From an uncultured Alphaproteobacteria bacterium (lineage in GTDB: Bacteria; Pseudomonadota; Alphaproteobacteria; Rs-D84), in the NCBI GenBank assembly GCA_944389535.1, contig CALXMS010000001.1:103202-167201 (forward strand): DNA of 64,000 nucleotides. Direction: 5' to 3'. Positions 2,461-40,243 of this stretch are shown piece after piece (the stretch's first letter is position 1; every line of letters starts with the position of its first letter). The notes beneath the pieces are model-generated. The model was not told where the DNA came from, searched no databases, and saw only the letters and a list, made by a program, of their open reading frames with translations. The position numbers and the translations under genes were made by a program.

Positions 2461-4194
2461 TTACGCCGGCATTTTTACAGCTTCTTTCATCTGAGATATA
2501 AAGTCATCAAGTTTTACAACTTCCTGCTTTTCTATCCCAAGGCGACGCAAAGTTACTGTTTTATCTGCCATTTCTTTTTCACCAACCACCGCAATAATTG
2601 GGGTTTTTGCCAAAGACAATTCACGGATTTTATAATTAACCTTCTCGTCACGTAAATCAGCCCGTGCATATATACCGGCATCATGCAAAGCATCAACTAT
2701 AGCTTCTGCATAATCACGGAACTTTTCAGAAATAGGGGTAACAACAACCGGTTCTGGTGACAACCACAAAGGCAAGTTTCCACCGGTTGATTCTAACAAT
2801 ATCGCCATAAAACGTTCAATAGATCCTAACATAGCACGATGCAGCATAATTGGACGGTGCTTTTCACCGTCTTCACCGATATAAGACAAATCAAATCTTT
2901 CCGGTAAATTCATGTCTAATTGTACCGTGCCACACTGCCATGTACGCCCCAGCGCATCTTTCAAGTAATTATCAATTTTCGGTCCATAGAATGCGGCATC
3001 ACCTTCTGCAATTTCATATTCAATGCCATTTGCATCCAGCGCATGTTTTAATGCACCTTCGGCTTTATCCCATATTTCATCAGACCCTATACGAAATTCA
3101 GATTCTTTACGGGTTGCTAGTTTCATAGAAATCTTATCAAAGCCAAACTTACCATAAATATCTTTAATAAAACGCAACACTTTTACGACTTCGGATTCTA
3201 ATTGCTCTTCCGTGCAGAAAATATGAGCATCATCTTGGGTAAATTCACGAACGCGCATCAACCCAGACAGACTACCAGCAGTTTCATAACGATTAACTTT
3301 ACCAAACTCGGCCAAATACATAGGCAAATCTTTATAAGACTTAATTCCCTGACCAAATACTAACATTCCGCCTGGGCAAGACATTGGTTTTACGCAGAAA
3401 GTTTTACCATCCTGAGTTTTACCAGAATAATTATGTTCACCATATTTAGCCCAGTGACCGCTACGTTCCCATAAAGAACGATCCATAACGGACGGAGTAG
3501 AAATTTCTAAATATCCTGCTTTTTCCTGACGATGACGGATATATTCAATTAATTTACGGTAAATTTTATATCCCTTATCATGCCAGAATACAGCCCCTGG
3601 TGCATAATCTGGTTCAAAATGGAATAAATCCATATCTTTACCTAACTTACGATTATCACGTCCTGCAGCTTCTTCTTGCATTTTTAAGAATTGTTCTAAT
3701 TCTTCTTTAGAAGCAAACGCATCTACATAAATACGTTGTAACATTTTATTTTTCGCATCGCCTTTCCAATACGCCCCCGCAACATTGCGAACCTTAAACG
3801 AATCGCGTGGTAAATCTTTTGAACTTTCAACGTGTGGTCCGCGACATAAATCAACGAAGTCTCTAAAAGTATAAATAGACAACTGCTCACCCGCGGCATC
3901 ATATTCGTTCAACCATTCCATTTTATATGGCTGATCGGCAAAAATTTGTTTTGCTTCTTCCAAAGATACATTACGCTGTTCAAACCTGCCGTTTGATTTG
4001 ATCAGTGAACGCATTTCTTGTTCTATTTTTTCAAAGTCTTCTTCTGAAAATCTGTGTTCAGTATCAAAGTCGTAATAGAACCCGTTTTCAATCGCCGGTC
4101 CCCCAGCAAATTTTACATCTGGATACAGTTTTTGTACTGCTGCCGCCATAACATGCGCCAAAGAATGACGAATCGTTTCAATAGGATATGCCAT
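2461..4194 (-). CDS. thrS: Threonine--tRNA ligase, a short form lacking the N-terminal TGS domain
   Basis: Has the HSLAHVMAAAV (HxxxH) editing-domain motif, the RDNRKLGKDMDLFHF class-II signature and a C-terminal anticodon-binding domain. At 577 aa it is about 65 aa shorter than canonical ThrRS. It begins directly at the N2/editing domain. Confidence 0.9.
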   Translation of the reverse strand: MAYPIETIRHSLAHVMAAAVQKLYPDVKFAGGPAIENGFYYDFDTEHRFSEEDFEKIEQEMRSLIKSNGRFEQRNVSLEEAKQIFADQPYKMEWLNEYDAAGEQLSIYTFRDFVDLCRGPHVESSKDLPRDSFKVRNVAGAYWKGDAKNKMLQRIYVDAFASKEELEQFLKMQEEAAGRDNRKLGKDMDLFHFEPDYAPGAVFWHDKGYKIYRKLIEYIRHRQEKAGYLEISTPSVMDRSLWERSGHWAKYGEHNYSGKTQDGKTFCVKPMSCPGGMLVFGQGIKSYKDLPMYLAEFGKVNRYETAGSLSGLMRVREFTQDDAHIFCTEEQLESEVVKVLRFIKDIYGKFGFDKISMKLATRKESEFRIGSDEIWDKAEGALKHALDANGIEYEIAEGDAAFYGPKIDNYLKDALGRTWQCGTVQLDMNLPERFDLSYIGEDGEKHRPIMLHRAMLGSIERFMAILLESTGGNLPLWLSPEPVVVTPISEKFRDYAEAIVDALHDAGIYARADLRDEKVNYKIRELSLAKTPIIAVVGEKEMADKTVTLRRLGIEKQEVVKLDDFISQMKEAVKMPA

Positions 4195-4281
4195 AATAAA
4201 AACCTTTTTATTTATATAAATAAAATTAAATTGTTATTGATTATTACACTGTGCGGGAAAAACCGCAAATAGAATCTACAC

Positions 4282-4314
4282 CCCCGTGGGGGTTGTTGTA
4301 GTTGTTATTATAAA
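4282..4314 (-). terminator. Structured hairpin downstream of the hlyIII-family gene; possible terminator
   Basis: CTACA-CCCCC-gtg-GGGGG-ttgt-TGTAG forms a nested stem (outer 5 bp, inner 5 bp G/C). The adjacent U-run is weak, and a second small GCGG-ttttt-CCGC hairpin lies at ~4253-4266. Confidence 0.25.
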
Positions 4315-4385
4315 GAATACTACATTTTTATTCATCATAGATGAATGTTAGTACTTAAAAGAAAAAATGTCAAATATGTTTTACC

Positions 4386-5132
4386 TTATAAATCAATAAT
4401 ACAACCGAACAAAACAGCGAAAAAGAAGCACACACTTCCAGCAATTACAAATAAATGCCAAATTGCATGTGAATACTTCATCTTACGCCACAGATAAAAA
4501 AACACGCCTATGGAATAAGATAATCCGCCAGCTAATATAAACCATAACGCCCTTACAGGTATGCTATATAACATTGCCGGTAAAATGAACAGCAGCGCCC
4601 ACCCCATTATCAAATACAATCCTACAATCCATTTAGGCTGCTGTTTAGGATTACGCATTTTTATGATAGACCCCGCTATAACAATCGCCCATAAAATCCC
4701 GAATACAGTCCAACCAATCCAACCACGTAAATTTACAAGCAAGAACGGCGTGTATGTGCCTGCTATTAAGGCATAGATAGCTACGCTATCCCATACTTCA
4801 AAGAAGCATTCACTCTTTTTTCCGATTGTTGCATGACACATAGTGGAACCAAAATAAAGTGTGAACATAGTCAAACCAAAAATAGCGCAAGAAACAATCG
4901 CCCATGGATTCCCCTTTAATGAGGCAAAAACAACCAGCAACGTCAAACCGGCGATTGCCAACCCGATACCTATGCCATGGGTTAAAATATTTACGGCCTC
5001 TTCTGACTTTGTGCTTGGTCTTTCCCAACGAAACAGACCCGTTGCACGTAATATTCGTAATAATCGACTGCCACGCTTATCCGATTTAACCGCCTTTAGT
5101 TTTGCACGAACAACTTTATTTGATTTAACCAT
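4386..5132 (-). CDS. Hemolysin III / PAQR-family integral membrane protein
   Basis: Seven predicted TM helices and the HlyIII C-terminal motif (YSHAIWHLFVIAGSVCFFFAV). The N-terminal ~40 aa is a Lys/Arg-rich extension. Confidence 0.8.
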   Translation of the reverse strand: MVKSNKVVRAKLKAVKSDKRGSRLLRILRATGLFRWERPSTKSEEAVNILTHGIGIGLAIAGLTLLVVFASLKGNPWAIVSCAIFGLTMFTLYFGSTMCHATIGKKSECFFEVWDSVAIYALIAGTYTPFLLVNLRGWIGWTVFGILWAIVIAGSIIKMRNPKQQPKWIVGLYLIMGWALLFILPAMLYSIPVRALWFILAGGLSYSIGVFFYLWRKMKYSHAIWHLFVIAGSVCFFFAVLFGCIIDL

Positions 5133-6705
5133 TTATTACGTCCTTTATACGATTAACAACTCTATCACTTCCCATAACTTGCATTATGGAATACAAGTCA
5201 GGTGTATTTGTGCGCCCGGTTAAAGCCACACGTAAATTCATTGCTACATCGCCATTTTTAACGCCTTTATCAGCAGCAATCGCCACAATTTTTGCCCACC
5301 ATGCATCTTTATCATCACAAATATCAAAGGTTGACAAGAATGTGCTTAATAAATCTTTGTTAAATTCATATTCTTTGTTCGGCACAAACAAATCATCCCA
5401 AAAGTATGAAACTTCCTGTAAAGTTTGTTTCCAAGTTATAAAGTCCTTACGTATACGCTTTGGATTATCACGTTCAATAGCCAAGATATTTTTCAAGTAT
5501 TCTGGATTATCACCGATTCGAGCCGCCCATTGCGGATCATATTCATCTGCCCAATCACGAACAAGTTTTACCAATTTATCAACCGGCAAAGTCCCGATAA
5601 ACTCACGCGCCCACCATTCCAACTTCTTCATATCAAATAACGCACCTGAAATAGGAATCTTTTTTAAACGCAATTCGTAATCCCAGATTGATTTAACCTG
5701 CCCTTTTGATTTTGCTTCTTCATAACCAGACGCAGCAATGTTACCAAGATATTCCAAAACAGCATCAGTCGGCCAACCATCCTGTAAAAAGAACGCAACA
5801 TTAGCTTCTGGGTCATGACGCTTTGATAACTTTCTTTGCTTACCCGTTTCTGGGTCAATCTTATCAATGGTTGATGTATGAATATATAACGGTGGTGTCC
5901 AACCCATCATACGAAATAACTGAATATGTAATGGAAAAGACGGCAACCATTCTTCACCGCGAACAACGTGCGTTGTTCGCATGAAATGGTCATCACATAA
6001 ATGCGCAAAATGATAAGTCGGCAGTCCGTCATTAGACTTAATCAGAACGATATCTTCATTGTTTTCTGGAAACCCGATAGAACCACGTACAGCATCCTTA
6101 CAGAAAATTCTGTTATCCGGATTACCAGTTGAATATAAACGAATTGAGGGTACTTCACCAGCATCTAAACGACGAATTATTTCTTCTTCTGATATATCCC
6201 TATCACGTGCAAATTCCCCATAAATACCAGTTGCGAAACCGGCCGCTTTTTGATTTTCGCGGATTTTTTCCATATCTTCAGACGTTAAAAAACAAGGATA
6301 CGCCAAACCACGTGCCAACAAATCTGCAGCAACACTATGATAGATATCCTTACGTTGCGATTGATAATAAGGGCCGTATTCTGGTATATCATTATATTCC
6401 AAACCGAATCGATGCATAGAATTTTCTATAATTTTAACGGCATCGGCAACCTCGCGCTTTGTATCTGTATCTTCTATGCGCAGCATAAATACACCACCTG
6501 ATTGCCGTGCTAATTTAGAATCTATAAACGCTTGATACAAACCACCAATGTGCATATAGCCTGTTGGGCTTGGTGCAAAACGAGTAACAAAAGCACCCTC
6601 TGATAAATTACGAGGCGGATATTTTTCTTCCAACTCTGCCAAAGTATATTTTGGTCTATTCCCAAGTACACGAGCAATCACATCTGCCGATAATCCTGTA
6701 CGCAT
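5125..6705 (-). CDS. gltX: Glutamate--tRNA ligase (class I; GluRS/GluQRS family)
   Basis: Has the HIGH-type motif (PSPTGYMHIGG), the KMSKS-type motif (KLSKRH) and a long C-terminal anticodon-binding domain. The start overlaps the hlyIII stop by 8 nt. Confidence 0.85.
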   Translation of the reverse strand: MRTGLSADVIARVLGNRPKYTLAELEEKYPPRNLSEGAFVTRFAPSPTGYMHIGGLYQAFIDSKLARQSGGVFMLRIEDTDTKREVADAVKIIENSMHRFGLEYNDIPEYGPYYQSQRKDIYHSVAADLLARGLAYPCFLTSEDMEKIRENQKAAGFATGIYGEFARDRDISEEEIIRRLDAGEVPSIRLYSTGNPDNRIFCKDAVRGSIGFPENNEDIVLIKSNDGLPTYHFAHLCDDHFMRTTHVVRGEEWLPSFPLHIQLFRMMGWTPPLYIHTSTIDKIDPETGKQRKLSKRHDPEANVAFFLQDGWPTDAVLEYLGNIAASGYEEAKSKGQVKSIWDYELRLKKIPISGALFDMKKLEWWAREFIGTLPVDKLVKLVRDWADEYDPQWAARIGDNPEYLKNILAIERDNPKRIRKDFITWKQTLQEVSYFWDDLFVPNKEYEFNKDLLSTFLSTFDICDDKDAWWAKIVAIAADKGVKNGDVAMNLRVALTGRTNTPDLYSIMQVMGSDRVVNRIKDVING

Positions 6706-6752
6706 TTTTTATTTTCCTTGTATTCGTATAAACCGAATTTTATACTAAATAT

Positions 6753-7385
6753 ATGGAAAAACAAGAGATAAGAACATTTGGACGACGTCACGGTAAAAAA
6801 TTATCCGCACGGCAAAACATTTTGTTAGAAAACATATTACCGACAATACAACCTTACGATTTACCGATAAATACCGGTTTAATTATGGAAATTGGTTTTG
6901 GTGCCGGTGAACATTTACGAGAAATAAGCCGGGAAAAACCGGGTAAAATTATAATTGGTGCAGAACCATTTATTAACGGTGTCGCATCACTGCTATCTGC
7001 AATTACAGACGAAAATAATTCGATTCGTTCCGAATATAAAAACATACGCATTTTTGCCGATGACGTGCGTAAATTCTTACGAGATACCGATTCGAAATTT
7101 GAACAAATTTGGGTTTTACACCCAGACCCTTGGCCGAAAGCAAGACATGAAAAAAGACGGCTTTTAAACGCTGATTTTTTGACGCTTCTGTCAAAACATC
7201 TTACACGAAACGGTGAAATTATAATTGGTACTGACCATTGGGAATACTTTGATTGGGTTATTAATCAAACAAAAAAAACACCACTAAAAATAAGTTTAAC
7301 AGACCTAGATACTATTCATACAAGGTATCAAGAGAAAAATAAGGCCGGTACTAAGAACCCAAAATATATGATTCTTAAAAATTAA
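6753..7385 (+). CDS. trmB: tRNA (guanine46-N7)-methyltransferase
   Basis: Has the SAM-binding motif IMEIGFGAGEHL and the conserved WVLHPDPWPKARHEKRRL segment of TrmB. Length 210 aa. Confidence 0.85.
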   Translation: MEKQEIRTFGRRHGKKLSARQNILLENILPTIQPYDLPINTGLIMEIGFGAGEHLREISREKPGKIIIGAEPFINGVASLLSAITDENNSIRSEYKNIRIFADDVRKFLRDTDSKFEQIWVLHPDPWPKARHEKRRLLNADFLTLLSKHLTRNGEIIIGTDHWEYFDWVINQTKKTPLKISLTDLDTIHTRYQEKNKAGTKNPKYMILKN

Positions 7386-8050
7386 ACCCTTATAAAAAAT
7401 TTAAGAGATCTAAGCAAATTTTGATGCATAGCTTCAGTTAATCTTACTACTTGTTCTATACGAGAAAAAATATTGCCAAGTAAAAAATGTAATTGGGGCG
7501 TATATTCATCATCTATAATACTTTCCAGTAATGAATATATACGTCCAACAAAATCGGACTTATCCCCGCTATCCTTAGGTAAAACTAACATTAACCCCGT
7601 AGCTCGTATTTTTTTTACCAAATTAAAAACATTTTCCCAATCACAAAAATTTATTTCATTTATATTTAAACCTATAAACAAAGATTTATTAAAGAACAAA
7701 TCATCTCTGATCATGTATAATTGTGATACCAATTCATTTAAATCGGTCATAGAAACGAAAATTTGTGCGCCATCTGCCCCCTGCTTAAAAGATTGATTTA
7801 TTTCTTCTGACAAATTAGATATATCTTCTATTTTATGTCCATTTAAATAAAAACGCGAAAAAATTTTGATATTTTTATTTTCTAACCATGGCCACATAAT
7901 AGAAACCGAAACAGGCGCAACAGATATTATAGGAATATGTTTTTCTATAGCAATTGACGCCATCCGTGCCAAATCCGTTGGTTCAAGTTCAGAGCCACAC
8001 CAAATTGCGCTTTCAGACACATCTAAAAGAATATCATCCTGTTTCATCAT
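7382..8050 (-). CDS. Hypothetical protein (ORFan; faint aldolase/TIM-barrel-like resemblance)
   Basis: A 222-aa ORF with no recognisable motifs. It converges on trmB with overlapping stop codons (TTAA). The segment HIPIISVAPVSVSIMWPWLENKNIKIFSRF weakly recalls DeoC-type aldolases. Confidence 0.4.
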   Translation of the reverse strand: MMKQDDILLDVSESAIWCGSELEPTDLARMASIAIEKHIPIISVAPVSVSIMWPWLENKNIKIFSRFYLNGHKIEDISNLSEEINQSFKQGADGAQIFVSMTDLNELVSQLYMIRDDLFFNKSLFIGLNINEINFCDWENVFNLVKKIRATGLMLVLPKDSGDKSDFVGRIYSLLESIIDDEYTPQLHFLLGNIFSRIEQVVRLTEAMHQNLLRSLKFFIRV

Positions 8051-8093
8051 TACCCTTTTTACTTTATCACAAATATGGTATAATTAAAACTAA

Positions 8094-9035
8094 ATGAAAA
8101 TACGTATAGATAATATATTATTATGCGTTTTATGGTTACTAGCCGTAACCCTGGGGGCATCTTTTTGGTTTAATACAGTTTTTGGTTTTGATATATTCTC
8201 TTCAGCTCATTGGGAATATATTGCTTTGCTTCAAGCGTCACATTCGCCTATAAAGACCGGTTTTTATGTATCTATGGCGATTACTATATTTGTTGCGATA
8301 TTTGGTTTGTATTTGGTTGTAAGACCCCGCATACGAAAAATCAGACTGCCTATAATGAGGGTAGATATGACACACAACAAAACTACAACCAACATTGAAC
8401 AACATCAAGATAACGTAATCCAATCAAATTCGGATGCATCGACTTTAGATTTATTACAAGCAGAAGAACAAAAATATACCCCTAATAAAGTGCCTTCTAA
8501 TCAATCTAATTTAGCGCGCCCGCCACGATTAACGTTACCGACGATAAATAATAATTTTATGTCTATGCCAGCTGAAACAACAATGTCATCTCACTTAACA
8601 ACTCGCACTACCCCAACTGATGAAGATACTTTAACCATTCAAAAAATCTTTATAAACACCGGTTATACAGTCAAACCTAACGTTACTTTAAACGGTATAA
8701 AAACGGTGTTAATAGCGATTGGTACGAATGAAACAATGTGGTTGGGTTGTATTGGGGTCAAAACAACAGATGTACGTGGAATAATAGAAAAATTCCAGCA
8801 GATATTTTCAGATACCCTGGACGAGACGGAAATATCAATAAACGGTTTTGTAATTGGTGCGCCAGACGCAGCTACCTCTGAGTTTCAAGATATATTAATG
8901 TTTAATACGATTAAAGACTTACAAGATTATGTGCAAGGAAGACAGAATCCGCCTTTGCCAGACGATGACGACGGTATGTTTGAAGCATATTCACAATACA
9001 TAGATGCAGTTATAACCCATATAGGTAAAATCTGA
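8094..9035 (+). CDS. Hypothetical membrane-tethered protein: two N-terminal TMs, a long S/T/N/Q/P-rich linker and a C-terminal ~140-aa globular domain
   Basis: 313 aa. TM1 is ILLCVLWLLAVTLGASFWF and TM2 is FYVSMAITIFVAIFGLYLVV, followed by the RPRIRKIRLP positive patch. A low-complexity TTTN...PTDEDT linker precedes the C-terminal domain, which ends in an acidic patch PPLPDDDDG. It is the first gene of a three-ORF operon with overlapping start/stop. Confidence 0.5.
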   Translation: MKIRIDNILLCVLWLLAVTLGASFWFNTVFGFDIFSSAHWEYIALLQASHSPIKTGFYVSMAITIFVAIFGLYLVVRPRIRKIRLPIMRVDMTHNKTTTNIEQHQDNVIQSNSDASTLDLLQAEEQKYTPNKVPSNQSNLARPPRLTLPTINNNFMSMPAETTMSSHLTTRTTPTDEDTLTIQKIFINTGYTVKPNVTLNGIKTVLIAIGTNETMWLGCIGVKTTDVRGIIEKFQQIFSDTLDETEISINGFVIGAPDAATSEFQDILMFNTIKDLQDYVQGRQNPPLPDDDDGMFEAYSQYIDAVITHIGKI

Positions 9036-9544
9036 TGAAATTTACTAAGGACATGGCAGAAAATCGTTTAAAAGAAATGAATATGGGCGATATGCCGATA
9101 ACTGAAATCAAGCCAACTCCAACAAATGTAGCCAGTGACTGGTTTAAATCATATAAACATTTATGTCGTGAATTTATGCGATCCTTAACCGATTCTGTTG
9201 AGGAACTAGCATTTATGAATCTAAACCAAAATGAATTTATGTCATTGATAATGGGAAAAAACGTTCCTCAAAATATATCTATACGATTTCGTATACCTCT
9301 TATATGGGGCGGAAAACTTGAAATAGATAATTTATTTATGTGTTCGACCTTTCCTTATTCTCAGAAGCTGGACCAATTCATACTAGAACAGTCTGGTTCA
9401 GATAGTATATGGTTACCGAATCCGGTAAAAAAAATTTATATTCAAGCACATACGTCATCTGGTGGTGATGGCGGTAACGCAACAGAAGATCGATTAAGTC
9501 AAATTGCGGCACAAATAGTTGCTGCGAAAGGAATGGAACAATAA
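9035..9544 (+). CDS. Hypothetical soluble protein, second operon gene
   Basis: The start ATG overlaps the upstream stop (ATGA). 169 aa with no recognisable family motifs. Contains a GGDGGNATEDRL segment. Confidence 0.4.
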   Translation: MKFTKDMAENRLKEMNMGDMPITEIKPTPTNVASDWFKSYKHLCREFMRSLTDSVEELAFMNLNQNEFMSLIMGKNVPQNISIRFRIPLIWGGKLEIDNLFMCSTFPYSQKLDQFILEQSGSDSIWLPNPVKKIYIQAHTSSGGDGGNATEDRLSQIAAQIVAAKGMEQ

Positions 9545-9557
9545 GCTGGAAACAAAC

Positions 9558-9992
9558 ATGACCTGTTCTGAATTTATATCTTTAATGGAAACGAAAAATG
9601 CTTTATTTACAGCGGCCGCATCTACGCGGTCAATAATGTTAACTAATTCAGCATTACAAAATATACGTGCGGCTATATTACCACAATTTATGATAGAACT
9701 ATATCAAAGACATGGTGCAATAAATCTTGGCAACGGTTATATTTTTGGTCCCACAGAAGTCAAACGCGGAAACAAATACCCGATACCAAGTATTTCGCAG
9801 TTAAATAATGATTTAATAAATATATCTAAATTACGGGGGAAAACTGTATTTGGTCGAAACGATTTATTTTGGTTTGCGTTTGATTCTTTCGGCACTTGTT
9901 ACATGTTAGATAATGTAACATTAAAAGAACTACGGAAATATTCAGACCCATATCAGTCTCTTTCAGATTGCTTAATTATAGGTGCTTTATAA
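9558..9992 (+). CDS. Hypothetical protein, possibly SUKH (SMI1/KNR4)-like immunity-type fold
   Basis: The track ORF starts at a TTG at 9519, overlapping the upstream gene. The first ATG, at 9558 (MTCSEF...), is the likelier start. Pattern LPQFMIELYQRHGAINLGNGYIFGP ... KTVFGRNDLFWFAFDSFGTCYMLDNVTLKEL resembles SUKH-1 domains (N-terminal LP..Y..F, C-terminal G.d.gG..y.lD). The similarity is weak. Confidence 0.4.
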   Translation: MTCSEFISLMETKNALFTAAASTRSIMLTNSALQNIRAAILPQFMIELYQRHGAINLGNGYIFGPTEVKRGNKYPIPSISQLNNDLINISKLRGKTVFGRNDLFWFAFDSFGTCYMLDNVTLKELRKYSDPYQSLSDCLIIGAL

Positions 9993-9995
9993 AAA

Positions 9996-10199
9996 ATGAA
10001 AAAATTATCAGTATCTTTATCTGGTCATCAAACCAGCATATCTTTAGAACAAGAATTTATAGACGAATTACATAAAATTTCAAAAGCAGAAAATAAATCT
10101 GTTGCATCAATTATAGAAAGTATTGATGATCAACGCACCCCAGAAACAAATTTATCATCTGCCATAAGAGTATGGATTTTAAAAAAACGCTTAGCATAA
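9996..10199 (+). CDS. Ribbon-helix-helix domain protein (RHH_4 family; often mis-annotated as aryl-sulfate sulfotransferase)
   Basis: 67 aa. MKKLSVSLSGHQTSISLEQEFIDELHKISKAE...NLSSAIRVWILKK matches the conserved alphaproteobacterial RHH_4 pattern (KRSVSIaGH.TSiSLEdeFW...NLSSAIRvfvL). Confidence 0.6.
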   Translation: MKKLSVSLSGHQTSISLEQEFIDELHKISKAENKSVASIIESIDDQRTPETNLSSAIRVWILKKRLA

Positions 10200-10201
10200 A
10201 A

Positions 10202-12214
10202 TTAATTTTTATTCTGCTTTGCATACAATGATATTGTGCATATACAAGAAAACAATAGAATAATTATCATCCACGTATCTCGACCAATACTTCTATATGG
10301 CGTTACATGGGCACCGAAAATTACACCATCCATATAACCTGATAAACCGACAGGAATTTCTGACATTACCGCACCATCGGCAGAAATAAATGCACTAATT
10401 CCTGAATAATTTGCTCTAATAATCGGTAAACCAGATTCAATAGCATAACGTCGAACCATGTCTAGATGCTGATAAGTTCCTGGCGTATTACCAAACCAAG
10501 TATCGTTTGTTATATTTATAACAGCATCGGGGTGTTCTCCTTTGGGAACCAAAGAGTCAGAAAAAATAATTTCATAACATATTGCCGGTGCAAATTTAAA
10601 AGAATGGTCCTTTATATTCATATTTATAATTTCTGGTCCGAAGCCCTTTTCTAATTGTCCAGGCGTCGGAATAATATCACCAAAAGGTCTATATTCACCA
10701 AAAGGAACTAAATGAGATTTACTGTATACTTTTTGAATTTCTCCGTTTGACGTTGATACTATCATTGAATTATACATATTATTATCAGAATAAGTCGTTG
10801 CTCCAATAATAACATTATTATTTAATACCTCCGCCAAAGGCATATCATCTCCTTTTAAAACAACAAAAGGATATGATGTTTCTGGAAAAACGATTAAATC
10901 GGGAGCCCCTGTCGAAGAAGCCAAATCTATTAAAACTCTTACATTTTCTGTGGCATTTTGTATTGCTTCTTCTCTAGAATGTGTCGCTTTTTGCACTGCG
11001 CTGCGCGCTGGTTGAACAACCCTTATGATGGGGCTAGTACTTGTGATCTGTTTAGATTTTTTGACATTAATATAACCATAAGTCGATCCAATAAAAGCTA
11101 AAACAAGAAATATTATAAACGTTACCCAGCCTATTTTGCTTTTACGTAAATTCACTAATTCAATGATTGACGCAATTAATCCCAAAACAACAAAAGAAGC
11201 ACCTAACGCGCCCCATAAAGACATAGAATTACTCAACAATTGTGACGGCATAAGAATGTTAGCAATTGGATTCCATGGAAATCCTGTTAACAGCCATTCT
11301 CTGAACCATAATATAAGCACCCATGTTGCAGCAAATAAAAACGCCCTACATGCTGGAAAAGTACGCACACGCATCACCACGACAAAGGGTATGGAAAAAA
11401 CAACCCCTCCTAATAATGCTATTCCTAATAATGCCGGTATAGTCCATATCGCGAATTGAGCAGTCAGTTCCGGAACAACATAAATAGAGTTTACTACCCA
11501 CCAAAACATAGCAAGCGCATATGCTGCGCTAAATGGCAAAATTCTTAAAAAAGCTTTTAGTGTGGTTATATTATGCGTTACGTTTATAGATAACTTATAA
11601 GCGGCAGCAACGGCTATCAAAGTTGCCCACCAAATATGAAACGGGGCAAAACCTAATGCTGCAATTCCCCCTAACAAGGCCATAATTATATACTGCCATA
11701 TAGAATTTTCTTTTATTTTGAAACGTTTTAACCATAAAAATATTTTGTTTCCGGGACAACACGATAAATCGCTGCATGCGTTAGATTCCGCTTTATAGGG
11801 ATTTTTTATACCAATGTTTTTTAAAATATTTATTTCTTTGTTTTCCATTATTTTTGCGTCTTTGTCCCTAATATGGTCATACCCTTGTAAATGCAATACA
11901 CCGTGAACAATCATATGCGCTGCATGATCTTCAAATGATATATTTTCATCCTTGCATTCACGTAAAACTGTATCGAAAGAAATATAAATATCTCCTAAAA
12001 GAATATCATCATCTAATTCAAACGATAACACGTTAGTTGGTTTATCTATATTGCGGTATGTTTTATTTAATTGGTGAATTTTTGCATCATTAGTTAATAC
12101 AATAGATACCTCAGCGTCTTTACCGACATGTAAAGCCGCTGCATTTGCTATTTTATTAAAATCAATCTTGTATTTACGCCAACGTTCATCGTCATAATTT
12201 ATATAAATTTTCAT
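10202..12214 (-). CDS. ybeY/lnt: Fusion ORF: N-terminal endoribonuclease YbeY domain joined to apolipoprotein N-acyltransferase Lnt
   Basis: The first ~140 aa carry the YbeY zinc-binding HGVLHLQGYDH motif. The remainder has the Lnt multi-TM N-terminus and a C-terminal CN-hydrolase domain (PETSYPF ... ICYEIIF). One uninterrupted 670-aa frame covers both. The two are usually separate genes in a phoH-ybeY-corC-lnt operon. Confidence 0.75.
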   Translation of the reverse strand: MKIYINYDDERWRKYKIDFNKIANAAALHVGKDAEVSIVLTNDAKIHQLNKTYRNIDKPTNVLSFELDDDILLGDIYISFDTVLRECKDENISFEDHAAHMIVHGVLHLQGYDHIRDKDAKIMENKEINILKNIGIKNPYKAESNACSDLSCCPGNKIFLWLKRFKIKENSIWQYIIMALLGGIAALGFAPFHIWWATLIAVAAAYKLSINVTHNITTLKAFLRILPFSAAYALAMFWWVVNSIYVVPELTAQFAIWTIPALLGIALLGGVVFSIPFVVVMRVRTFPACRAFLFAATWVLILWFREWLLTGFPWNPIANILMPSQLLSNSMSLWGALGASFVVLGLIASIIELVNLRKSKIGWVTFIIFLVLAFIGSTYGYINVKKSKQITSTSPIIRVVQPARSAVQKATHSREEAIQNATENVRVLIDLASSTGAPDLIVFPETSYPFVVLKGDDMPLAEVLNNNVIIGATTYSDNNMYNSMIVSTSNGEIQKVYSKSHLVPFGEYRPFGDIIPTPGQLEKGFGPEIINMNIKDHSFKFAPAICYEIIFSDSLVPKGEHPDAVINITNDTWFGNTPGTYQHLDMVRRYAIESGLPIIRANYSGISAFISADGAVMSEIPVGLSGYMDGVIFGAHVTPYRSIGRDTWMIIILLFSCICTISLYAKQNKN

Positions 12215-12231
12215 AATCCATTACCTATGTA

Positions 12232-14157
12232 TTAATCTAAATTTTTATCAGATTTTGACAAAAGTTTTTCTTTAATCATATTATCTTTGTCTTGTTTTTT
12301 TATATTCTTTGCGGCATTAAAAAATGCGGCTGTTTTATCGGAATAAATATTATTAATTCTGTCCACATCTTTATTTACAGTGACATTGCCATTTGCAACA
12401 GACAATTTATAATTAGCCAAAGCCTTTTTAAAATCTCCTAGCATTTCATATGCAAATCCGGCATTATATTGCGCCGCGGCATACTGACTTTTATCTCCTA
12501 TGCGATGCAAAATTTCTCTGGCCTGCGCAATGGCCTCTTCATATCTACCTAAATGGTTATACGTTGCAGCTAAATCATTATGTAATAACGCGTTATTTGG
12601 ATACTGCACCAACATTTTCTCAAATTGTGTTGCTGCCCCAAGATAATCTTTTTTAGTATATGCAGCTATAGCATTATTGTATTGTTCGTCATAACCAATA
12701 GTATACGTTTTAGCCATAACTCTTTCTTGCGATTTAACAACTTTATAAAAGTTATCATTATTTAGTTCACACTTACCATTTTGACACAAAGCTAAAACAT
12801 CAGATGGTAGAAAGTCTGCCACTTTTTTCCAATGTCGTAAGCTTTCACCTTTAGCGTTTACCGGATTAAGTATCCATTGTTTAAATTTTATAAAAGTTTC
12901 TTTATTTACTTTTCTATTAGTTATATCACCGATAAAAAACGCTTCCTTCTTTTTTCCCATAACACAAAAAAATTCGTACATACCATTTACTGGACAGCTT
13001 AGCAACATTCCAGGTGTTATATCACCAGTTAATAATCCAGCCTCTAACCAACGGCGCCAATACAAACCTCTGCCGCCAGATAAAAAACCACCTAATTTAT
13101 TTGCTACAACATCTTTATCAGCCCCTTTTAACCAAAATTTCCCGAAAGACGTAGTATCTTGTATAGGGTATCGATCAAATATTTTTTGAACCAACGTATC
13201 AGGTACACCATAACCATACTTATCATATAAATTACGCAATTGTTCAAATCTTTCTTTATTATTTTTGTCTTCAGGATTTTCTATCAATTTAGAGTATGAG
13301 TTATATAAAATAGACCCCATACCCAAAACCTCACTTGTTGAAGTAATATTAACGTTTGTTTGTGAAACTTCATAACAATATAAAATGAAATAAGTTTCAC
13401 TTTCTTCCAAATGCCAACGAGCTAATTCATATGCCTCTTCTGTTGTCATCGGTTTAGTTTTCATGGTAACGCGACTGCCGTCTTTTAACATTGTTGAACC
13501 AAAGCCAATTGTAGGTATATTCTTTGAATCAAGATATGGTTTATGTAGCCCTGTTTGTGGATCGACATGAACACCTTCTTTTGCAATTAAATCCGCAATA
13601 AGAAAAGGCGTTATTGGTTGCACTTTATTTAGAAATGCTTTATAAGTACCACGCGCTTGTTTTTCTGCGGCGCGTTTTGTTCGATATTCTTTATATTGTT
13701 TAACCGCGTCCGGGACATATTCTACACCTGCATAAATACTAAAAGACAACGCCGTTAAACCCAGCAACCATATAGCATGCGAGAAAGAATTCGGATTTGA
13801 CTTTATAAACGAAGGAACGAATTTAGTTTTACCGTCTTTATTTTTTTTCACCTTCATTTCTTGAATTTTATTTTCAATTTGCCGCATATATTTATTATCC
13901 ATTGTCAACCAACGCGCCAACGTAAGTAAAAACTGACTGCCTCCAGCTGCCAGCCATGCGGTTCCCTTTGCTAATCCCAAAAAACCTATTGCAGCATTAT
14001 CACGCAATTTTGGGTAACGTTCTTTAATTCCATCTTCATCTTTTTTACTGCGTTTATCACGAATATATTGTACAGGTTTCTTTTTTTCTATAAATTTACG
14101 TAAATTCGCTGCCACTTGTTCTGGTATGGCAACCTTTTCTCTAAATTTTTCTGACAT
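12232..14157 (-). CDS. Membrane-anchored protein with a GH24 (phage-type) lysozyme-like catalytic domain and C-terminal TPR repeats
   Basis: An N-terminal hydrophobic segment (AIGFLGLAKGTAWLAAGG / WLLGLTALSFSIYAGV) precedes the central LIADLIAKEGVHVDPQTGLHKPYLDSKNIPTIGFGSTM...MTTEEAYELARWHLEE. This fits the GH24 E...D-x5-T(IGxG) catalytic pattern and the downstream tEEAe.LL..dL helix. The C-terminus has three or more TPR-like repeats (YNNAIAAYTKKDYLGAATQFEKML... YNAGFAYEMLGDFKKALANYKLSV). Confidence 0.5.
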   Translation of the reverse strand: MSEKFREKVAIPEQVAANLRKFIEKKKPVQYIRDKRSKKDEDGIKERYPKLRDNAAIGFLGLAKGTAWLAAGGSQFLLTLARWLTMDNKYMRQIENKIQEMKVKKNKDGKTKFVPSFIKSNPNSFSHAIWLLGLTALSFSIYAGVEYVPDAVKQYKEYRTKRAAEKQARGTYKAFLNKVQPITPFLIADLIAKEGVHVDPQTGLHKPYLDSKNIPTIGFGSTMLKDGSRVTMKTKPMTTEEAYELARWHLEESETYFILYCYEVSQTNVNITSTSEVLGMGSILYNSYSKLIENPEDKNNKERFEQLRNLYDKYGYGVPDTLVQKIFDRYPIQDTTSFGKFWLKGADKDVVANKLGGFLSGGRGLYWRRWLEAGLLTGDITPGMLLSCPVNGMYEFFCVMGKKKEAFFIGDITNRKVNKETFIKFKQWILNPVNAKGESLRHWKKVADFLPSDVLALCQNGKCELNNDNFYKVVKSQERVMAKTYTIGYDEQYNNAIAAYTKKDYLGAATQFEKMLVQYPNNALLHNDLAATYNHLGRYEEAIAQAREILHRIGDKSQYAAAQYNAGFAYEMLGDFKKALANYKLSVANGNVTVNKDVDRINNIYSDKTAAFFNAAKNIKKQDKDNMIKEKLLSKSDKNLD

Positions 14158-14170
14158 AATTGTTACCTTA

Positions 14171-14536
14171 TTATTTTTTTCCTAAACCTGTTTTTTTAGC
14201 AATTTTTGATCTACGCATCGAATAATTAGGTGCAACGAAAGGATAATCTTCTGGCAGGCCCCATTTTTCACGATATTGCTGCGGTGTCATATTAAATTTA
14301 CGACGAATATACCTGCGCAACATTATATGCCAGGTACCATCTTCCAGACATTGAATTTTATCCTGATGTACAGAATTCTCTATTTGTTGACGAGAAACAT
14401 ATGTTCCTCGTAAAGTTTCACGTGCTTTTTTTACTGCTTGTTCCATAGAAAGTTCCGGATTAGCGCCAATAGCAGCAGCCGCTAAATTAGCCACAGCCAA
14501 AGTAAATTCAGAAGAATCCTTATTTACAGTTACCAA
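14171..14536 (-). CDS. mucR: MucR/Ros-family transcriptional regulator
   Basis: 121 aa with C-terminal TPQQYREKWGLPEDYPFVAPNYSMRRSKIAKKTGLG. This closely matches the Ros/MucR DNA-binding domain (tPeeYRaKWGLPaDYPmVAPnYa..RS.LAK..GLG). The zinc-coordinating positions are partly substituted. Confidence 0.7.
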   Translation of the reverse strand: MVTVNKDSSEFTLAVANLAAAAIGANPELSMEQAVKKARETLRGTYVSRQQIENSVHQDKIQCLEDGTWHIMLRRYIRRKFNMTPQQYREKWGLPEDYPFVAPNYSMRRSKIAKKTGLGKK

Positions 14537-14613
14537 TTGAAAACCTCACTTTTATTTACTAAAATTCATTATATCATAAATAAACATCAAATAAAACCAA
14601 AGTAAAAACAGAT

Positions 14614-15897
14614 ATGTCGACTGAAAACCGACCTCTTGCAGATTTAATGCGTCCGACAACAATAAACGATATTGTCGGGCAACCACAATTACTGGGTGAA
14701 AACGGACTAGTCCGTCGTATGGTCGATAATAACAAATTATCAAATTTAATTTTATGGGGTCCTCCAGGATGTGGTAAGACAACAATCGCCCGTGCTTTGG
14801 CAAAATCGGTTGATATGGATTTCGTACCGATGTCTGCTGTATTTTCTGGTACAGCAGATATAAAAAAAGCAATGGAAGCAGCACGCATGAATTGCGACAT
14901 TGGTCGTTCAACGCTTTTATTTATCGACGAAATCCACAGATTTAATAAAACCCAACAGGATACGTTATTACCATATTTAGAAGATGGAACTGTTGTTTTT
15001 ATGGGTGCTACAACAGAAAACCCAAGTTTTAATTTAAATAACGCTTTATTATCTCGTTGCCACGTTGGTGTATTACAACCTTTATCAACAGAAGACTTAA
15101 TGACGCTTATATCGCGTGCAGAAAAATTCTTAAATAAGAAACTGCCGCTTGACGATTCGGCTCGTTTACATTTAGCACAAATGTCAGATGGAGACGCCAG
15201 ATTTTTATTAAACACGATAGAATATTTATCAAACGCAAATTTTAAAAAGAAATTAACGCCTGAGTCATTAGACAATGTTATACAAAAACGCGCACCGTTA
15301 TCTGACAAAACTGGGGACGAACATTACAATCTTATATCAGCCGTACATAAATCTTTACGTGCCAGTGATACCGATGCCGCATTATATTGGACGGCTCGCA
15401 TGATGACGTCTGGTCAAGACCCAATGTACTTATTTAGACGTCTTACCCGATTCGCAATGGAAGATATAGGGTTGGCAGATCCTAACGCTATGCAAATAGC
15501 ATTATCTGCTTGGCAGGTATATGAACGCATGGGCAGCCCAGAAGGTGACCTTGCGTTGACTGAATTAGTAATATATCTTGGGACGGCACCTAAAAGTACG
15601 GCGAATTACAAAGCGCAAATATCTGCCTATAGTACCGCCAGAGAAACGGGAAGTTTAATGCCGCCTAAAAATATTTTAAATGCGCCGACACGTATGATGA
15701 AGGATATGGGATATGGTGCTGGATACATATATGAACCTAATACAGCATCAGGTTTCAGCGGTCAAAACTGTTTCCCAGAATCAATGGAACGTCAAAAATT
15801 TTATTATCCAATCGAGCGCGGTTTTGAAAGAGAAATAAAAAAACGACTTGAATATTGGGATTCCTTACGAAAAAAAATAAATTCAAAAAAAGATTAA
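14614..15897 (+). CDS. rarA: Replication-associated recombination protein A (AAA+ ATPase RarA/MgsA)
   Basis: Has the Walker A motif LWGPPGCGKTTIARALA, the Walker B motif LLFIDEIHRFNK and the conserved C-terminal MgsA domain. Divergent from mucR with a 77-nt shared promoter region. Confidence 0.9.
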   Translation: MSTENRPLADLMRPTTINDIVGQPQLLGENGLVRRMVDNNKLSNLILWGPPGCGKTTIARALAKSVDMDFVPMSAVFSGTADIKKAMEAARMNCDIGRSTLLFIDEIHRFNKTQQDTLLPYLEDGTVVFMGATTENPSFNLNNALLSRCHVGVLQPLSTEDLMTLISRAEKFLNKKLPLDDSARLHLAQMSDGDARFLLNTIEYLSNANFKKKLTPESLDNVIQKRAPLSDKTGDEHYNLISAVHKSLRASDTDAALYWTARMMTSGQDPMYLFRRLTRFAMEDIGLADPNAMQIALSAWQVYERMGSPEGDLALTELVIYLGTAPKSTANYKAQISAYSTARETGSLMPPKNILNAPTRMMKDMGYGAGYIYEPNTASGFSGQNCFPESMERQKFYYPIERGFEREIKKRLEYWDSLRKKINSKKD

Positions 15898-16859
15898 CGT
15901 TTAATAGATTGACTTAAACAAGTAAGCATATTTATTACGTTCGTCAAAGAATTTGTTTTGCGCGCAACCACGCCAACTTTTGCACGATTGATTAAACCAG
16001 TAAGCGTTCTACCTGGTCCTAATTCATATGCAGAAGTGATATTGTGTTCAGGAAATTTTTCCATTATATCTAACCAGCGCACTCCTTGTGTCATTTGACC
16101 GATTAATGCACTTTTTACATCTTGCGGATCAGACAAAATTTGCGCTGACTGATTAGAAAACCATCTTGTTTTTGGTGAAACTAAATTGATACTTTCCAGA
16201 CGATGATTTAACAAAATTTTTGCGTTTTCCATCAAAGCGCAATGTGCCGGTACAGATACATTTAACTTTTTTGCAATTTTTGCACCCTTTTCTTTTGCGC
16301 GTTCTATAACAGCGTCCAAAGCATCACTTTGTCCGCTGATAGTAAACTGATCTTTTGCATTATGATTAGAAATAGAAGCGAAACCACGACCTGTTGCGGC
16401 CATTAAACACATCTCTACAGCATCTTTATCAAGACCTACAATACAAGCCATACCCCCACCTTCTGCACTTGTCATAGACATATATGTAGAACGTGCAGAT
16501 AAAAGTTTGACAGTATCCTCAAAACTTAAACTACCGGCACAATGCAATGCAGAATACTGTCCCATAGAATGCCCTGTAACAGCATATGCAATTTTATATA
16601 ATGGTGCATTAAAATATGACTCTATTATACGTGCAATAGATACAGAATGAGCCAAAGTCCCCAAAGATGTAAATTCTGGTTTATTTAAAATTTCCTGCGG
16701 TCCATTAAAACACGCCTGTGTTATATTTTTATGTGATATATCACACACTTCTTCAAACGTATGCCGAACAACGGCATATTCTTTAAATAAATCATGTGCC
16801 ATTCCAATATATTGAGCACCTTGACCAGGGAACACAAAAACTATATTTTCTTTCATCAT
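15894..16859 (-). CDS. fabD: Malonyl-CoA:ACP transacylase
   Basis: Has FVFPGQGAQYIGM and the active-site GHSMGQYSAL (GHSxG) motifs. Length 321 aa. Convergent with rarA with a 4-nt overlap of stops. Confidence 0.9.
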   Translation of the reverse strand: MMKENIVFVFPGQGAQYIGMAHDLFKEYAVVRHTFEEVCDISHKNITQACFNGPQEILNKPEFTSLGTLAHSVSIARIIESYFNAPLYKIAYAVTGHSMGQYSALHCAGSLSFEDTVKLLSARSTYMSMTSAEGGGMACIVGLDKDAVEMCLMAATGRGFASISNHNAKDQFTISGQSDALDAVIERAKEKGAKIAKKLNVSVPAHCALMENAKILLNHRLESINLVSPKTRWFSNQSAQILSDPQDVKSALIGQMTQGVRWLDIMEKFPEHNITSAYELGPGRTLTGLINRAKVGVVARKTNSLTNVINMLTCLSQSIKR

Positions 16860-16898
16860 TAAACGTGATTATTGCACAAACATAGAAAATGTCAACAT

Positions 16899-16925
16899 TG
16901 CTTAATAAAAAATCCTGCACAAAAC
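16899..16925 (-). terminator. Putative rho-independent terminator downstream of the outer-membrane protein gene
   Basis: On the minus strand, a GCCTG-ttttgtg-CAGG stem is followed by ATTTTTTATT. Confidence 0.35.
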
Positions 16926-16936
16926 AGGCATTTTTA

Positions 16937-17662
16937 TCAGAATAAAATATTTACATTAACCCCAACCTGCAAATCATCGCTTTCAAATTCATAATCTAGG
17001 TGACCTGCATATTGCGTTCTTCCATATTGACGAACTATTTTTCCCCCTAACCATTCTTGATCATAGTGAGGATTGGTTGCTTTACGCAATGTAAATTGCG
17101 CGCCCAAACGCCAATCTTCTGCTATACGAAAATATGCTTCTGGTGTTGCGTCTATATAGGCCATTCCGCGCTCATCATCGAAAATCCAACTGGATTTTAT
17201 AGTCGCAGCCAAAGTCATACCAGCCCATTGACGCCCAAATCTATAACCGGCATAATACGTAGAATCGGCATAATCAGGCGTACGCACACGGGAAGAACCA
17301 CCAAACTTTAACCCAAATAAAACGTCTGATATTATATTAGAACTATTCCCAGCAGCTGTTCCGACGCGATAAATTCCACCCAAATCAATGGCGGAAAAAC
17401 CGTCTTCTGGTCCATCAAAATCTTGCTGAAAGTGTACGTTTGCCGCTATAGTTAGTCGATTATTCAAACCATATGATAATTCTTGCCCCAGACGTAATAC
17501 GTTATCCCAATAAGTCAAACTTGTTTTAGATAACACTTGTTGTTCAGCCAATAAAAACAATGGGTCTGATGTATCCGTATCTAATGAGTTCGCATATGCA
17601 CCAGAACTTATAGAAAAAACAAGCCCTATTGCGGCAAATAATCCTATTAAATTTTTACGCAT
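16937..17662 (-). CDS. Outer-membrane beta-barrel protein (signal peptide, C-terminal aromatic)
   Basis: Has the signal peptide MRKNLIGLFAAIGLVFSISSGAYA. Alternating amphipathic beta-strand pattern rich in G/Y/W/D. The terminal ...VNVNILF ends in Phe, as typical for BamA substrates. Confidence 0.5.
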   Translation of the reverse strand: MRKNLIGLFAAIGLVFSISSGAYANSLDTDTSDPLFLLAEQQVLSKTSLTYWDNVLRLGQELSYGLNNRLTIAANVHFQQDFDGPEDGFSAIDLGGIYRVGTAAGNSSNIISDVLFGLKFGGSSRVRTPDYADSTYYAGYRFGRQWAGMTLAATIKSSWIFDDERGMAYIDATPEAYFRIAEDWRLGAQFTLRKATNPHYDQEWLGGKIVRQYGRTQYAGHLDYEFESDDLQVGVNVNILF

Positions 17663-17757
17663 CTCTCCCCTTCTTTTTTATAGATTTTTATATAAGCGCT
17701 TTTACTAAAATCTGGGTTCCGACTTTCATCGGAACCCGATAAAGCATTGCCATAAGT

Positions 17758-18963
17758 CTAGAACATAAAGATTGCCTGTAACCCAACAGATGCTTCGGAA
17801 TAGTTATCGATACTTGCTGTTCCCATTTTACGGAATACACCGTCAACAGCATCTGTCTGCCAGAACGATAAATCTTTACCATCGGCAGAATCCCATACCG
17901 CCATCTTACCGTACAGATTCAGCGCAAACCAATCATTTGGCTGCCAACCGATTGCGGCTTTCAAACTTGCTTGGTTGTGCCAATCGTAATTTCCTAAGAT
18001 CGCTTCGAAATTAAGCGTCCAATCTTCTTCCAGTACGCTAAACACACCAAGCCCACCTTCTACATAGAAAGTATTTTTCGCATCCGTGTTATAAGCCATA
18101 AAGAACGTGGCATCATTACCTTCTTCCGTTGTTCCGTTAACTCCATTACCATAAGAATCGCCTTCAAAATTCAAATACCAACCACGAACCAATCCATATA
18201 TGGTAGAAGAACTGATTTTATATCCACCCTTAATATCTAAAACTATATTATTAGATATGTCTTGCTGATGCTGATAGTATGCAGACGCGGTCGCAATCCA
18301 TTCGTTTGTATCAACAAATCTCCACTGCATCCCCAAACCAAAAAGATTTAACCCGCTGTCATCCATGGTATCATCTGGTGCAACAGCCCAATCAAATTTA
18401 TAATCTGAAATATCAAAACGCGCCATAGCCAGTATAGATAATTCATCTGTGATACCATAACTAAAATCTTCTTTTATAGAAAACTGACTCATATCCCATT
18501 TACCATTAGGATCAGATATGGCACCACCAGAAACAGGTGTTAAGAATATATCATAAGAATTCATATTGTAAGACAAATCCGTTACGGAACCAAATTTACC
18601 CTTTGTCGGTTGAAAGAACGGATGCGCCAGATAATATTTACGTTTTAACTCTGTACGATAAGTTTCGGCACGCGTTGTACGAACCGTTGACGCGGAATTA
18701 CCGCTGTCGTATTGCTTATAAAGTGCGCTACGATTTGCTGGTTGCGTATAATATATGTTCTTTGCGTCCGCCTGGTCATAAGTTTTAGTTGTTGAACGAG
18801 TTGTATATTTTTCATAGTTTACTTGCGTACGTTCACGAACTGCTGGTCCGCTGGTTAAATCAGCGCTGGATGCAGCACGAGTACCGGAATTAGTTGCAGC
18901 CAACGCAGGCATCGCACTTACTAATGCCGCAAAAACGGCAACTAAAGACAAATGTTTTCTCAT
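17758..18963 (-). CDS. Outer-membrane beta-barrel protein (porin-like), second of a tandem OMP pair
   Basis: Has the signal peptide MRKHLSLVAVFAALVSAMPALAA, an N-terminal S/T/Y-rich region, a beta-strand-rich C-terminal ~280 aa and a terminal ...LQAIFMF. Confidence 0.5.
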   Translation of the reverse strand: MRKHLSLVAVFAALVSAMPALAATNSGTRAASSADLTSGPAVRERTQVNYEKYTTRSTTKTYDQADAKNIYYTQPANRSALYKQYDSGNSASTVRTTRAETYRTELKRKYYLAHPFFQPTKGKFGSVTDLSYNMNSYDIFLTPVSGGAISDPNGKWDMSQFSIKEDFSYGITDELSILAMARFDISDYKFDWAVAPDDTMDDSGLNLFGLGMQWRFVDTNEWIATASAYYQHQQDISNNIVLDIKGGYKISSSTIYGLVRGWYLNFEGDSYGNGVNGTTEEGNDATFFMAYNTDAKNTFYVEGGLGVFSVLEEDWTLNFEAILGNYDWHNQASLKAAIGWQPNDWFALNLYGKMAVWDSADGKDLSFWQTDAVDGVFRKMGTASIDNYSEASVGLQAIFMF

Positions 18964-19030
18964 TATCCAAATCTCCTTTTTGTAAAATTATATCATAAAA
19001 AGACCGAATGAAAAAGAATTAAAAATATTT

Positions 19031-19058
19031 TCGATAAAGGAAACCGCTTTATAGCGGT
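19031..19058. terminator. Hairpin terminator downstream of ftsK
   Basis: AAACCGCT-ttat-AGCGGTTT is a perfect 8-bp stem flanked by T-rich sequence (TTTCTTTAT on +). Confidence 0.4.
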
Positions 19059-19063
19059 TTTCT

Positions 19064-21310: not shown

Positions 21311-21358
21311 TTTATCATAAAAAAGACTAAAATGTTAGGATTTAAGATAAAAATTTAA

Positions 21359-22057: not shown

Positions 22058-22077
22058 ATTTTCCCCGCTTAATTATT

Positions 22078-40226: not shown

Positions 40227-40243
40227 AAGATGTCCCCTAAGTT

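Follow-up and report, generated by a model that had tools for sequence, protein, structure and literature searches.

YbeY is a universally conserved, zinc-dependent endoribonuclease that serves in 16S rRNA 3'-end maturation and ribosome quality control and whose mode of action is still debated, and the apolipoprotein N-acyltransferase Lnt puts the third acyl chain on lipoproteins. In Escherichia coli the two genes lie in one cluster with the order miaB-ybeZ-ybeY-ybeX-lnt, in which ybeZ is phoH and ybeX is corC; we know of no accepted explanation for the lasting operon linkage of ybeY to corC and lnt. The same neighborhood is seen in Sinorhizobium meliloti, where ybeY is located between phoH and tlyC/corC (PMC6943124). 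Fusions of YbeY to Era occur in Clostridia and Selenomonadales (PMC10582724). Here we describe a ybeY::lnt open reading frame (ORF) in a 64,000-nucleotide stretch of DNA, referred to as the window, from an uncultured alphaproteobacterium (assembly GCA_944389535.1, contig CALXMS010000001.1, positions 103,202 to 167,201). The fusion is ancient and common to a clade of small-genome gut Alphaproteobacteria, and we consider it probable that the ORF is a genuine old gene fusion which makes a single bifunctional inner-membrane protein.

One ORF encodes complete YbeY and Lnt domains

The ybeY::lnt ORF occupies positions 10202..12214 on the minus strand of the window, begins with ATG, ends with TAA (10202-10204) and encodes 670 amino acids (aa), with a predicted product size of ~75 kDa. 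The original prediction, made from the letters alone, had described one continuous YbeY-Lnt frame at 10202-12214 in which a YbeY domain of ~aa 1-140 runs without a stop into Lnt, and the ORF list, the sequence itself and both Pfam and NCBIfam bear this out. Upon direct reading, the DNA between the two parts contains zero stops and the frame is unchanged, with YbeY at aa 1-~144, a linker of ~30 aa, and Lnt at aa ~160-670. Because the genome is 35% guanine plus cytosine (GC), a 670-codon open frame cannot be a product of chance. Neither partner is truncated: residues 24-153 of the 155 in E. coli YbeY and residues 14-512 of the 512 in E. coli Lnt both align. An AlphaFold2 model built from 53 sequences (mean predicted local distance difference test score [pLDDT] 82; predicted template modeling score 0.71) shows two confidently folded domains joined by a low-confidence linker.

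The YbeY endoribonuclease domain (aa 1-140; 11795..12214, minus strand) was assigned by Pfam and NCBIfam, by alignment to the E. coli protein and by fold. PF02130 matches aa 15-133 (E 1e-35; 122.9 bits; cut-off 25), and the YbeY equivalog TIGR00043 reaches 133.6 bits (cut-off 45). Residues 24-153 of E. coli YbeY correspond to aa 19-143 of the fusion, PDB entries 1xm5 and 1xax are matched at E 1e-24 and 1e-25, respectively, and the domain closes with the conserved NPY (aa 138-140) found near the C-terminus of stand-alone YbeY. In the model the domain has a pLDDT of ~85, and Foldseek superimposes it on 1xm5 with a TM-score of 0.79-0.81 and a root-mean-square deviation of 2.9 Å (E. coli and S. 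aureus YbeY structures: TM-score 0.76-0.81). The zinc site that had been predicted, HGVLHLQGYDH, is present at aa 104-114 (11873..11905, minus strand) and reads directly as H-x3-H-x5-H. When the window protein is aligned with 79 relatives (80 sequences, the sample for all conservation values below), the zinc ligands H104, H108 and H114 prove invariant (80/80).

The Lnt half is equally complete. The membrane domain (LNT_N, transmembrane [TM] helices 1-7; aa 173-400; 11015..11698, minus strand) rests on PF20154 (aa 182-344; 63.2 bits; cut-off 27.1), the AlphaFold2 model and Foldseek, the modeled helices spanning aa 172-188, 195-210, 218-244, 258-282, 287-309, 331-355, and 360-388. It is followed by the periplasmic nitrilase-like (CN-hydrolase) domain (aa 401-640; 10295..11014, minus strand), supported by PF00795 (aa 423-620; 76.7 bits; cut-off 23.2), by the lnt equivalog TIGR00546 (226.2 bits; cut-off 132.9) and by alignment to P. 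aeruginosa Lnt (5n6m), and by a C-terminal TM helix (Lnt H8) with a basic tail (aa 641-670; 10205..10294, minus strand; modeled helix aa 645-669) that matches the end of E. coli Lnt in the alignment. The model and Foldseek show eight TM helices, with H7 and H8 flanking the periplasmic nitrilase-like domain. Residues 14-512 of E. coli Lnt correspond to aa 176-668 of the fusion, and against all solved Lnt structures (24 chains) the model gives TM-scores of 0.72-0.78 over ~525 columns. In the alignment with 5n6m, E445 (FPETS; 10880-10882), K499 (SKSHLVPFGEY; 10718-10720) and C546 (APAICYE; 10577-10579; all minus strand) line up with the P. aeruginosa catalytic motifs; the triad of the E. coli enzyme is E267/K335/C387 (PMC5500888). 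All three residues are invariant in the 80 sequences, as are the motifs FPET, HLVPFGEY, CYE, NDTWFG, and GFPWNP.

Both the N-terminus and the C-terminus of Lnt are cytoplasmic (PMC5500888), so that the fused YbeY would stay in the cytoplasm, where the RNA substrates of YbeY are. The five K/R residues at aa 157-168 of the segment before TM1 (NKIFLWLKRFKIKEN) are in keeping with the positive-inside rule, and the predicted helix at aa 156-164 suggests an amphipathic helix lying at the membrane interface. Taken together, the N-terminal ~144 residues would form a complete cytoplasmic zinc-dependent YbeY, a flexible, Cys-containing, basic linker of ~30 residues would connect it to the cytoplasmic N-terminus of Lnt, and the Lnt half, with its eight TM helices and periplasmic nitrilase-like domain, would acylate lipoproteins. 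Given that the catalytic residues are kept, both enzymes most likely work independently.

Elsewhere in the window (61769-63745, minus strand) we noticed lolCE (TIGR02212, 420 bits; cut-off 362) together with a LolD-like ABC ATPase gene (252 bits, below its 308-bit cut-off). A lipoprotein release system is retained in this reduced genome, and the presence of these genes suggests, indirectly, that the lipoprotein pathway which requires Lnt is in use.

The fusion is conserved among relatives

A homologue search of 5.8 billion proteins gave at least 120 clusters (at 90% identity) of proteins of ~650-686 aa that are 57-99% identical to the window protein, all with the same three Pfam domains. For a species-level sample we took one genome per GTDB species and recovered 80 loci. 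The same uninterrupted, ATG-started ORF (650-703 aa; 54-72% identity) is present in 79 of these 80 species-representative genomes, the sole exception being L059, in which it begins at a contig end. These are metagenome-assembled genomes (MAGs) from the guts of humans, chickens, ruminants and horses, recorded as Candidatus Enterousia spp., "uncultured Alphaproteobacteria" or "Rickettsiales bacterium". Enterousia, with genomes of ~0.75-1.0 Mb, is assigned to Rs-D84, an uncultured order of Alphaproteobacteria (PMC12306168).

This distribution bears on whether the continuous frame is real. An indel near nt 11,770-11,800 that hides the ybeY stop, leaving two real genes, is a reasonable prior worry for AT-rich sequence derived from a MAG, and the original prediction had raised such a frameshift. 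We found no support for it: the frame is continuous in 79 of 80 assemblies, which are independent and differ in study, host and assembler, as well as in the at least 120 clusters, all linker indels between species are in frame, and the lone exception starts at a contig end. We regard a sequencing or assembly artefact as ruled out, with next to no chance of being correct. The fusion reading itself would have fallen had relatives uniformly carried two genes with a stop between them; the opposite is seen, with one ORF in 79 of the 80.

In a deeper search, which covered all 1.84 billion 50%-identity representatives, more distant fusions were found in other alphaproteobacterial MAGs, some of them 41-53% identical (P0121-P0128) and others 33-34% identical (P0136 and P0142); NCBI annotates them as single coding sequences under the name "apolipoprotein N-acyltransferase". 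A very recent loss of the ybeY stop, confined to this genome and either neutral or already decaying, had been another suggestion, and reduced genomes do gather such accidents; corC and phoH are gone from this very locus. It is nevertheless contradicted by a fusion that extends to proteins just 33-41% identical and has orthologous flanks, by catalytic residues that are invariant in 80 of 80 sequences within domains of 54-68% mean identity, and by a linker that has gained a conserved motif of its own. We therefore dismiss recent stop loss as very improbable, and the genuine bifunctional fusion put forward as the first option in the original prediction gains support from the 79 genomes, the at least 120 clusters and the invariant catalytic centers.

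On a neighbor-joining tree of the Lnt part, the fused proteins group with a few unfused Lnts (P0134, P0137, P0139-141) in a single clade; this tree has no support values and we did not rely on it to count fusions or fissions. When flanking genes were inspected within ±10 kb of the matches, the unfused lnt genes of this clade had no ybeY nearby. They likely reflect secondary fission or relocation, read from a tree without support values. An intermediate stage with ybeY and lnt adjacent but separate was considered for L081, L084, and L085 and rejected, as the upstream genes are unrelated.

Two further observations were made at the unfused loci. In L081 the gene directly upstream of lnt (1102-1626), in the position where ybeY might be expected, codes for a Cys-rich protein of 174 aa that lacks a Pfam match and whose N-terminus resembles a signal peptide. 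Type II CRISPR-Cas systems (Cas9 of 990-1083 aa, Cas1, Cas2) lie within 1-2 kb of unfused lnt in L081 (5195-9080), L082 (5106-8991), and L084 (2623-6763), which are termite-gut-type 'Rickettsiales bacterium' MAGs.

The linker carries a conserved Cys motif

The inter-domain linker (aa 141-172; 11699..11794, minus strand), delimited by alignment and by the AlphaFold2 model, varies in both sequence and length, with a mean identity of 38% compared to 54-68% for the domains. The peptide that spans the junction (aa 142-157) is AESNACSDLSCCPGNK, and aa ~146-162 alone are without a counterpart in E. coli YbeY or Lnt. With a pLDDT of 45-61, the linker is predicted to be disordered, the one exception being aa 156-164 (KIFLWLKRFKIK), a basic amphipathic helix.

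Within this variable segment, conservation picks out a Cys motif, C147-x4-C152-C153-P154-G155 (11750..11776, minus strand): C147 and C152 are each kept in 82% of the sequences, C153 and G155 in 78%, and P154 in 70%. In L047, L060, and L074 (around locus positions 6420-6520) the motif has grown into clusters of 9-12 Cys that resemble metallothionein, for example CNCGCGGKCNCVDCKCKNCSCCNCPG, and it is lost in ~10 Enterousia-level species and in all distant fusions. The motif may bind metal next to the zinc RNase, which is a guess on our part.

One protein or two

Two proteins could arise from the single ORF, either by internal initiation, within the linker or beyond it, or by proteolysis of the linker that frees YbeY. 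The original prediction had pointed to a possible internal ribosome-binding site and ATG ahead of the Lnt part, and the window does have an in-frame ATG there, at Met178 (MALLGG). This start is not conserved: Met178 occurs in 26 of the 80 species, no Shine-Dalgarno motif is seen at it, and none of the other columns of aa 141-190 in the 80 sequences has a conserved Met. An in-frame ATG, GTG or TTG with a Shine-Dalgarno-like motif falls within aa 141-190 in 7 of 80 (ATG alone: 2 of 80). This test is weak, and the absence of such motifs is a weak counter-argument, as the true start itself is accompanied by a Shine-Dalgarno-like motif in 22 of 80 only. Initiation at Met178 would, moreover, delete the N-terminal cytoplasmic segment. 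A promoter and terminator scan of 9900-14700 gave nothing above chance in the linker, and no minus-strand promoter-like site in that region, although the AT-rich DNA makes the scan uninformative. Proteolysis is a different matter, in that a disordered linker (pLDDT 45-61) could be a protease substrate; in distant fusions, however, there is nearly no linker to cut, as in P0123, where NPYKKSNTFF leaves ~six residues after NPY before TM1 begins. On balance, we find it unlikely that the ORF yields two proteins.

We saw no stand-alone YbeY of this clade among the short YbeY-like matches. The short YbeY-like representatives of the clade (P0133, P0143, P0145, P0148, P0151, P0246) are fragments that enter the linker or TM1 or end at a contig edge. 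Two of them, P0143 (219 aa) and P0133 (318 aa), have a normal YbeY-linker start followed by unrelated sequence and are probably frameshifted or chimeric contigs. Fragments of this sort could pass for stand-alone YbeY genes.

The locus lies outside the phoH-ybeY-corC-lnt operon

The original prediction set the fusion against the usual phoH-ybeY-corC-lnt operon and noted that corC is absent here. The absence of corC holds, the two domains being joined by ~30 codons, but the locus is no longer in that operon at all: phoH is not directly upstream of ybeY, corC is not between ybeY and lnt, and the gene upstream encodes a TPR/lysozyme-like protein. The window's ORFs of 150 aa or longer include no phoH or corC, most of these ORFs having been scanned directly and those in 2461-7385 and 15894-23583 assigned by synteny with L083, and the window scans found no CorC/CBS/DUF21 protein. 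The upstream gene (12232-14157, minus strand), 17 nt from the fusion, encodes a 641-aa protein with C-terminal TPR repeats and a phage-lysozyme-like segment (aa 205-256; a weak match whose score lies exactly on the Pfam threshold). Ahead of it is a Ros/MucR regulator gene (14171-14536). This Enterousia order (MgsA, Ros/MucR, TPR/lysozyme-like) is kept upstream in L083, a 65%-identical relative.

In distant relatives, miaB precedes the fusion where the TPR/lysozyme-like gene stands here: a miaB gene (UPF0004 and Radical_SAM) abuts or overlaps the fusion start in L086 (P0136), L087 (P0126), and L089 (P0128). The presence of miaB directly upstream in these three loci is what a deletion of phoH and corC from the ancestral cluster would leave. 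Downstream, the window and L089, whose fusion is 41% identical, share five genes in the same order (blastp E 8e-10 to 3e-46), indicating that the two loci are orthologous. This five-gene block (7382-10199), convergent to the fusion, encodes proteins of 222 aa (minus strand) and of 313, 169, 157, and 67 aa (plus strand), namely one RHH_4 (ribbon-helix-helix) protein and four without Pfam matches, and its order is kept in L083 and L089. It is a conserved cluster that travels with ybeY::lnt.

Most likely the fusion happened once, deep in the lineage. Synteny would place its origin in the lineage of gut Alphaproteobacteria with reduced genomes to which Candidatus Enterousia (order Rs-D84) belongs. 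The route may have led from an ancestral miaB-phoH-ybeY-corC-lnt cluster through loss of phoH and corC to loss of the ybeY stop, and the simplest account is that operon neighbors fused during genome reduction. The fusion would have been tolerated because the N-terminus of Lnt faces the cytoplasm. Its effect would be to set 1:1 expression of the two enzymes and to restrict YbeY to the membrane surface.

Several points weigh against this account of an old fusion working as one protein. The existence of unfused Lnt relatives implies that the fusion is dispensable or reversible, and the neighbor-joining tree, having no support values, does not separate one fusion followed by fissions from several independent fusions. 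The flanks inspected cover ±10 kb, so that a further stand-alone ybeY or lnt elsewhere in the genome is possible. Translation as one polypeptide and stability of the product are what we infer, and cleavage in the disordered linker may follow translation. Finally, a membrane-held YbeY might reach 30S subunits less easily.

A possible functional link between YbeY and Lnt

We also considered whether the fusion is a Rosetta stone, i.e., that YbeY has a role at the membrane, shared with Lnt or in envelope biogenesis, be it in the processing of envelope mRNA, in ribosome maturation at the membrane, or through regulation of Lnt by the metal status of YbeY via the Cys-rich linker. Such a coupling would explain the ybeY-lnt operon linkage that extends from E. 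coli to Alphaproteobacteria (PMC6943124); the long retention of the fusion and the Cys motif beside a zinc enzyme are in line with it, and the other recurrent YbeY fusion, YbeY-Era, joins functional partners (PMC10582724). Neighbor fusion in a shrinking genome, however, can come about without any functional link, the membrane separates the two active sites, an unfused Lnt with no ybeY nearby occurs in some relatives, and the Cys motif is missing from the distant fusions, all of which make functional coupling, in our judgment, quite unlikely. A more specific version would have YbeY active on the cytoplasmic side of the inner membrane, for example on ribosomes making envelope proteins or in envelope-coupled 30S maturation, would explain in this way the ybeY-corC-lnt linkage across Proteobacteria, and would have the C-x4-CCPG linker of Enterousia bind metal and supply or sense zinc; we hold it to be likewise unlikely.

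Even with two independently working enzymes, the fusion has its uses. Long-lasting anchoring to Lnt would show that YbeY is able to function at the membrane, within a few residues of TM1 in some members, and the fusion is a natural construct for probing where YbeY acts. Since public records name the proteins only "apolipoprotein N-acyltransferase", metabolic reconstructions of these reduced gut genomes that go by name would count ybeY as absent, in error. If the fusion is a mere by-product of genome shrinkage, it is still a clean, datable fusion of operon neighbors following loss of the gene in between. It demonstrates no new mechanism.

Other features of the window

Five glycosyltransferase/capsule genes (RgpF-like, GT2, GT1, GT2, and Caps_synth; 36377-41152) adjoin recA. 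The local GC of 0.315 at 38001-40000 is the minimum of the window, and owing to this dip the cluster may have been horizontally acquired. GC skew is negative almost throughout (cumulative -3.97 over 64 kb) and genes are mostly on the minus strand, consistent with a window that is located inside one replichore.

Comparison with known systems

A full-text search of the literature returned no account of a YbeY-Lnt fusion; the architecture is visible in databases under the Lnt name only and, as far as this search goes, is undescribed in print. Both halves are ordinary members of their families, with activities predicted from family membership. The YbeY half resembles stand-alone YbeY (E. coli b0659, 1XM5; H. 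influenzae HI0004, 1XAX; S. meliloti SMc01113) over the full length of the domain at 38-43% identity, with the same zinc site and the same fold (TM-score 0.79-0.81). Unlike stand-alone YbeY, it has no stop after NPY but runs into a membrane protein, and should thus be tethered instead of soluble. The Lnt half shares with E. coli Lnt (b0657; 5N6H/5XHQ/5VRG) and P. aeruginosa Lnt (5N6M) the complete build of eight TM helices and a nitrilase-like domain with the E/K/C triad, even though identity to the solved Lnts is just 20-23%. What sets it apart from known Lnts is the cytoplasmic N-terminal extension of ~160 residues, made up of YbeY and the Cys-containing linker.

As a fusion, the protein is most readily compared with YbeY-Era, in which YbeY is likewise the N-terminal module and is likewise joined to the product of a conserved neighbor gene. 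The partner in YbeY-Era is a soluble ribosome-assembly GTPase, with a KH domain, that physically binds YbeY (PMC10582724), whereas the partner here is an integral membrane acyltransferase without a known ribosome link. As a locus, it matches the miaB-ybeZ(phoH)-ybeY-ybeX(corC)-lnt cluster in that ybeY comes before lnt and in that distant fusions keep miaB directly upstream. It departs from that cluster in that phoH and corC are gone and, in Enterousia, miaB too, with the MucR and TPR/lysozyme-like pair upstream in its place.

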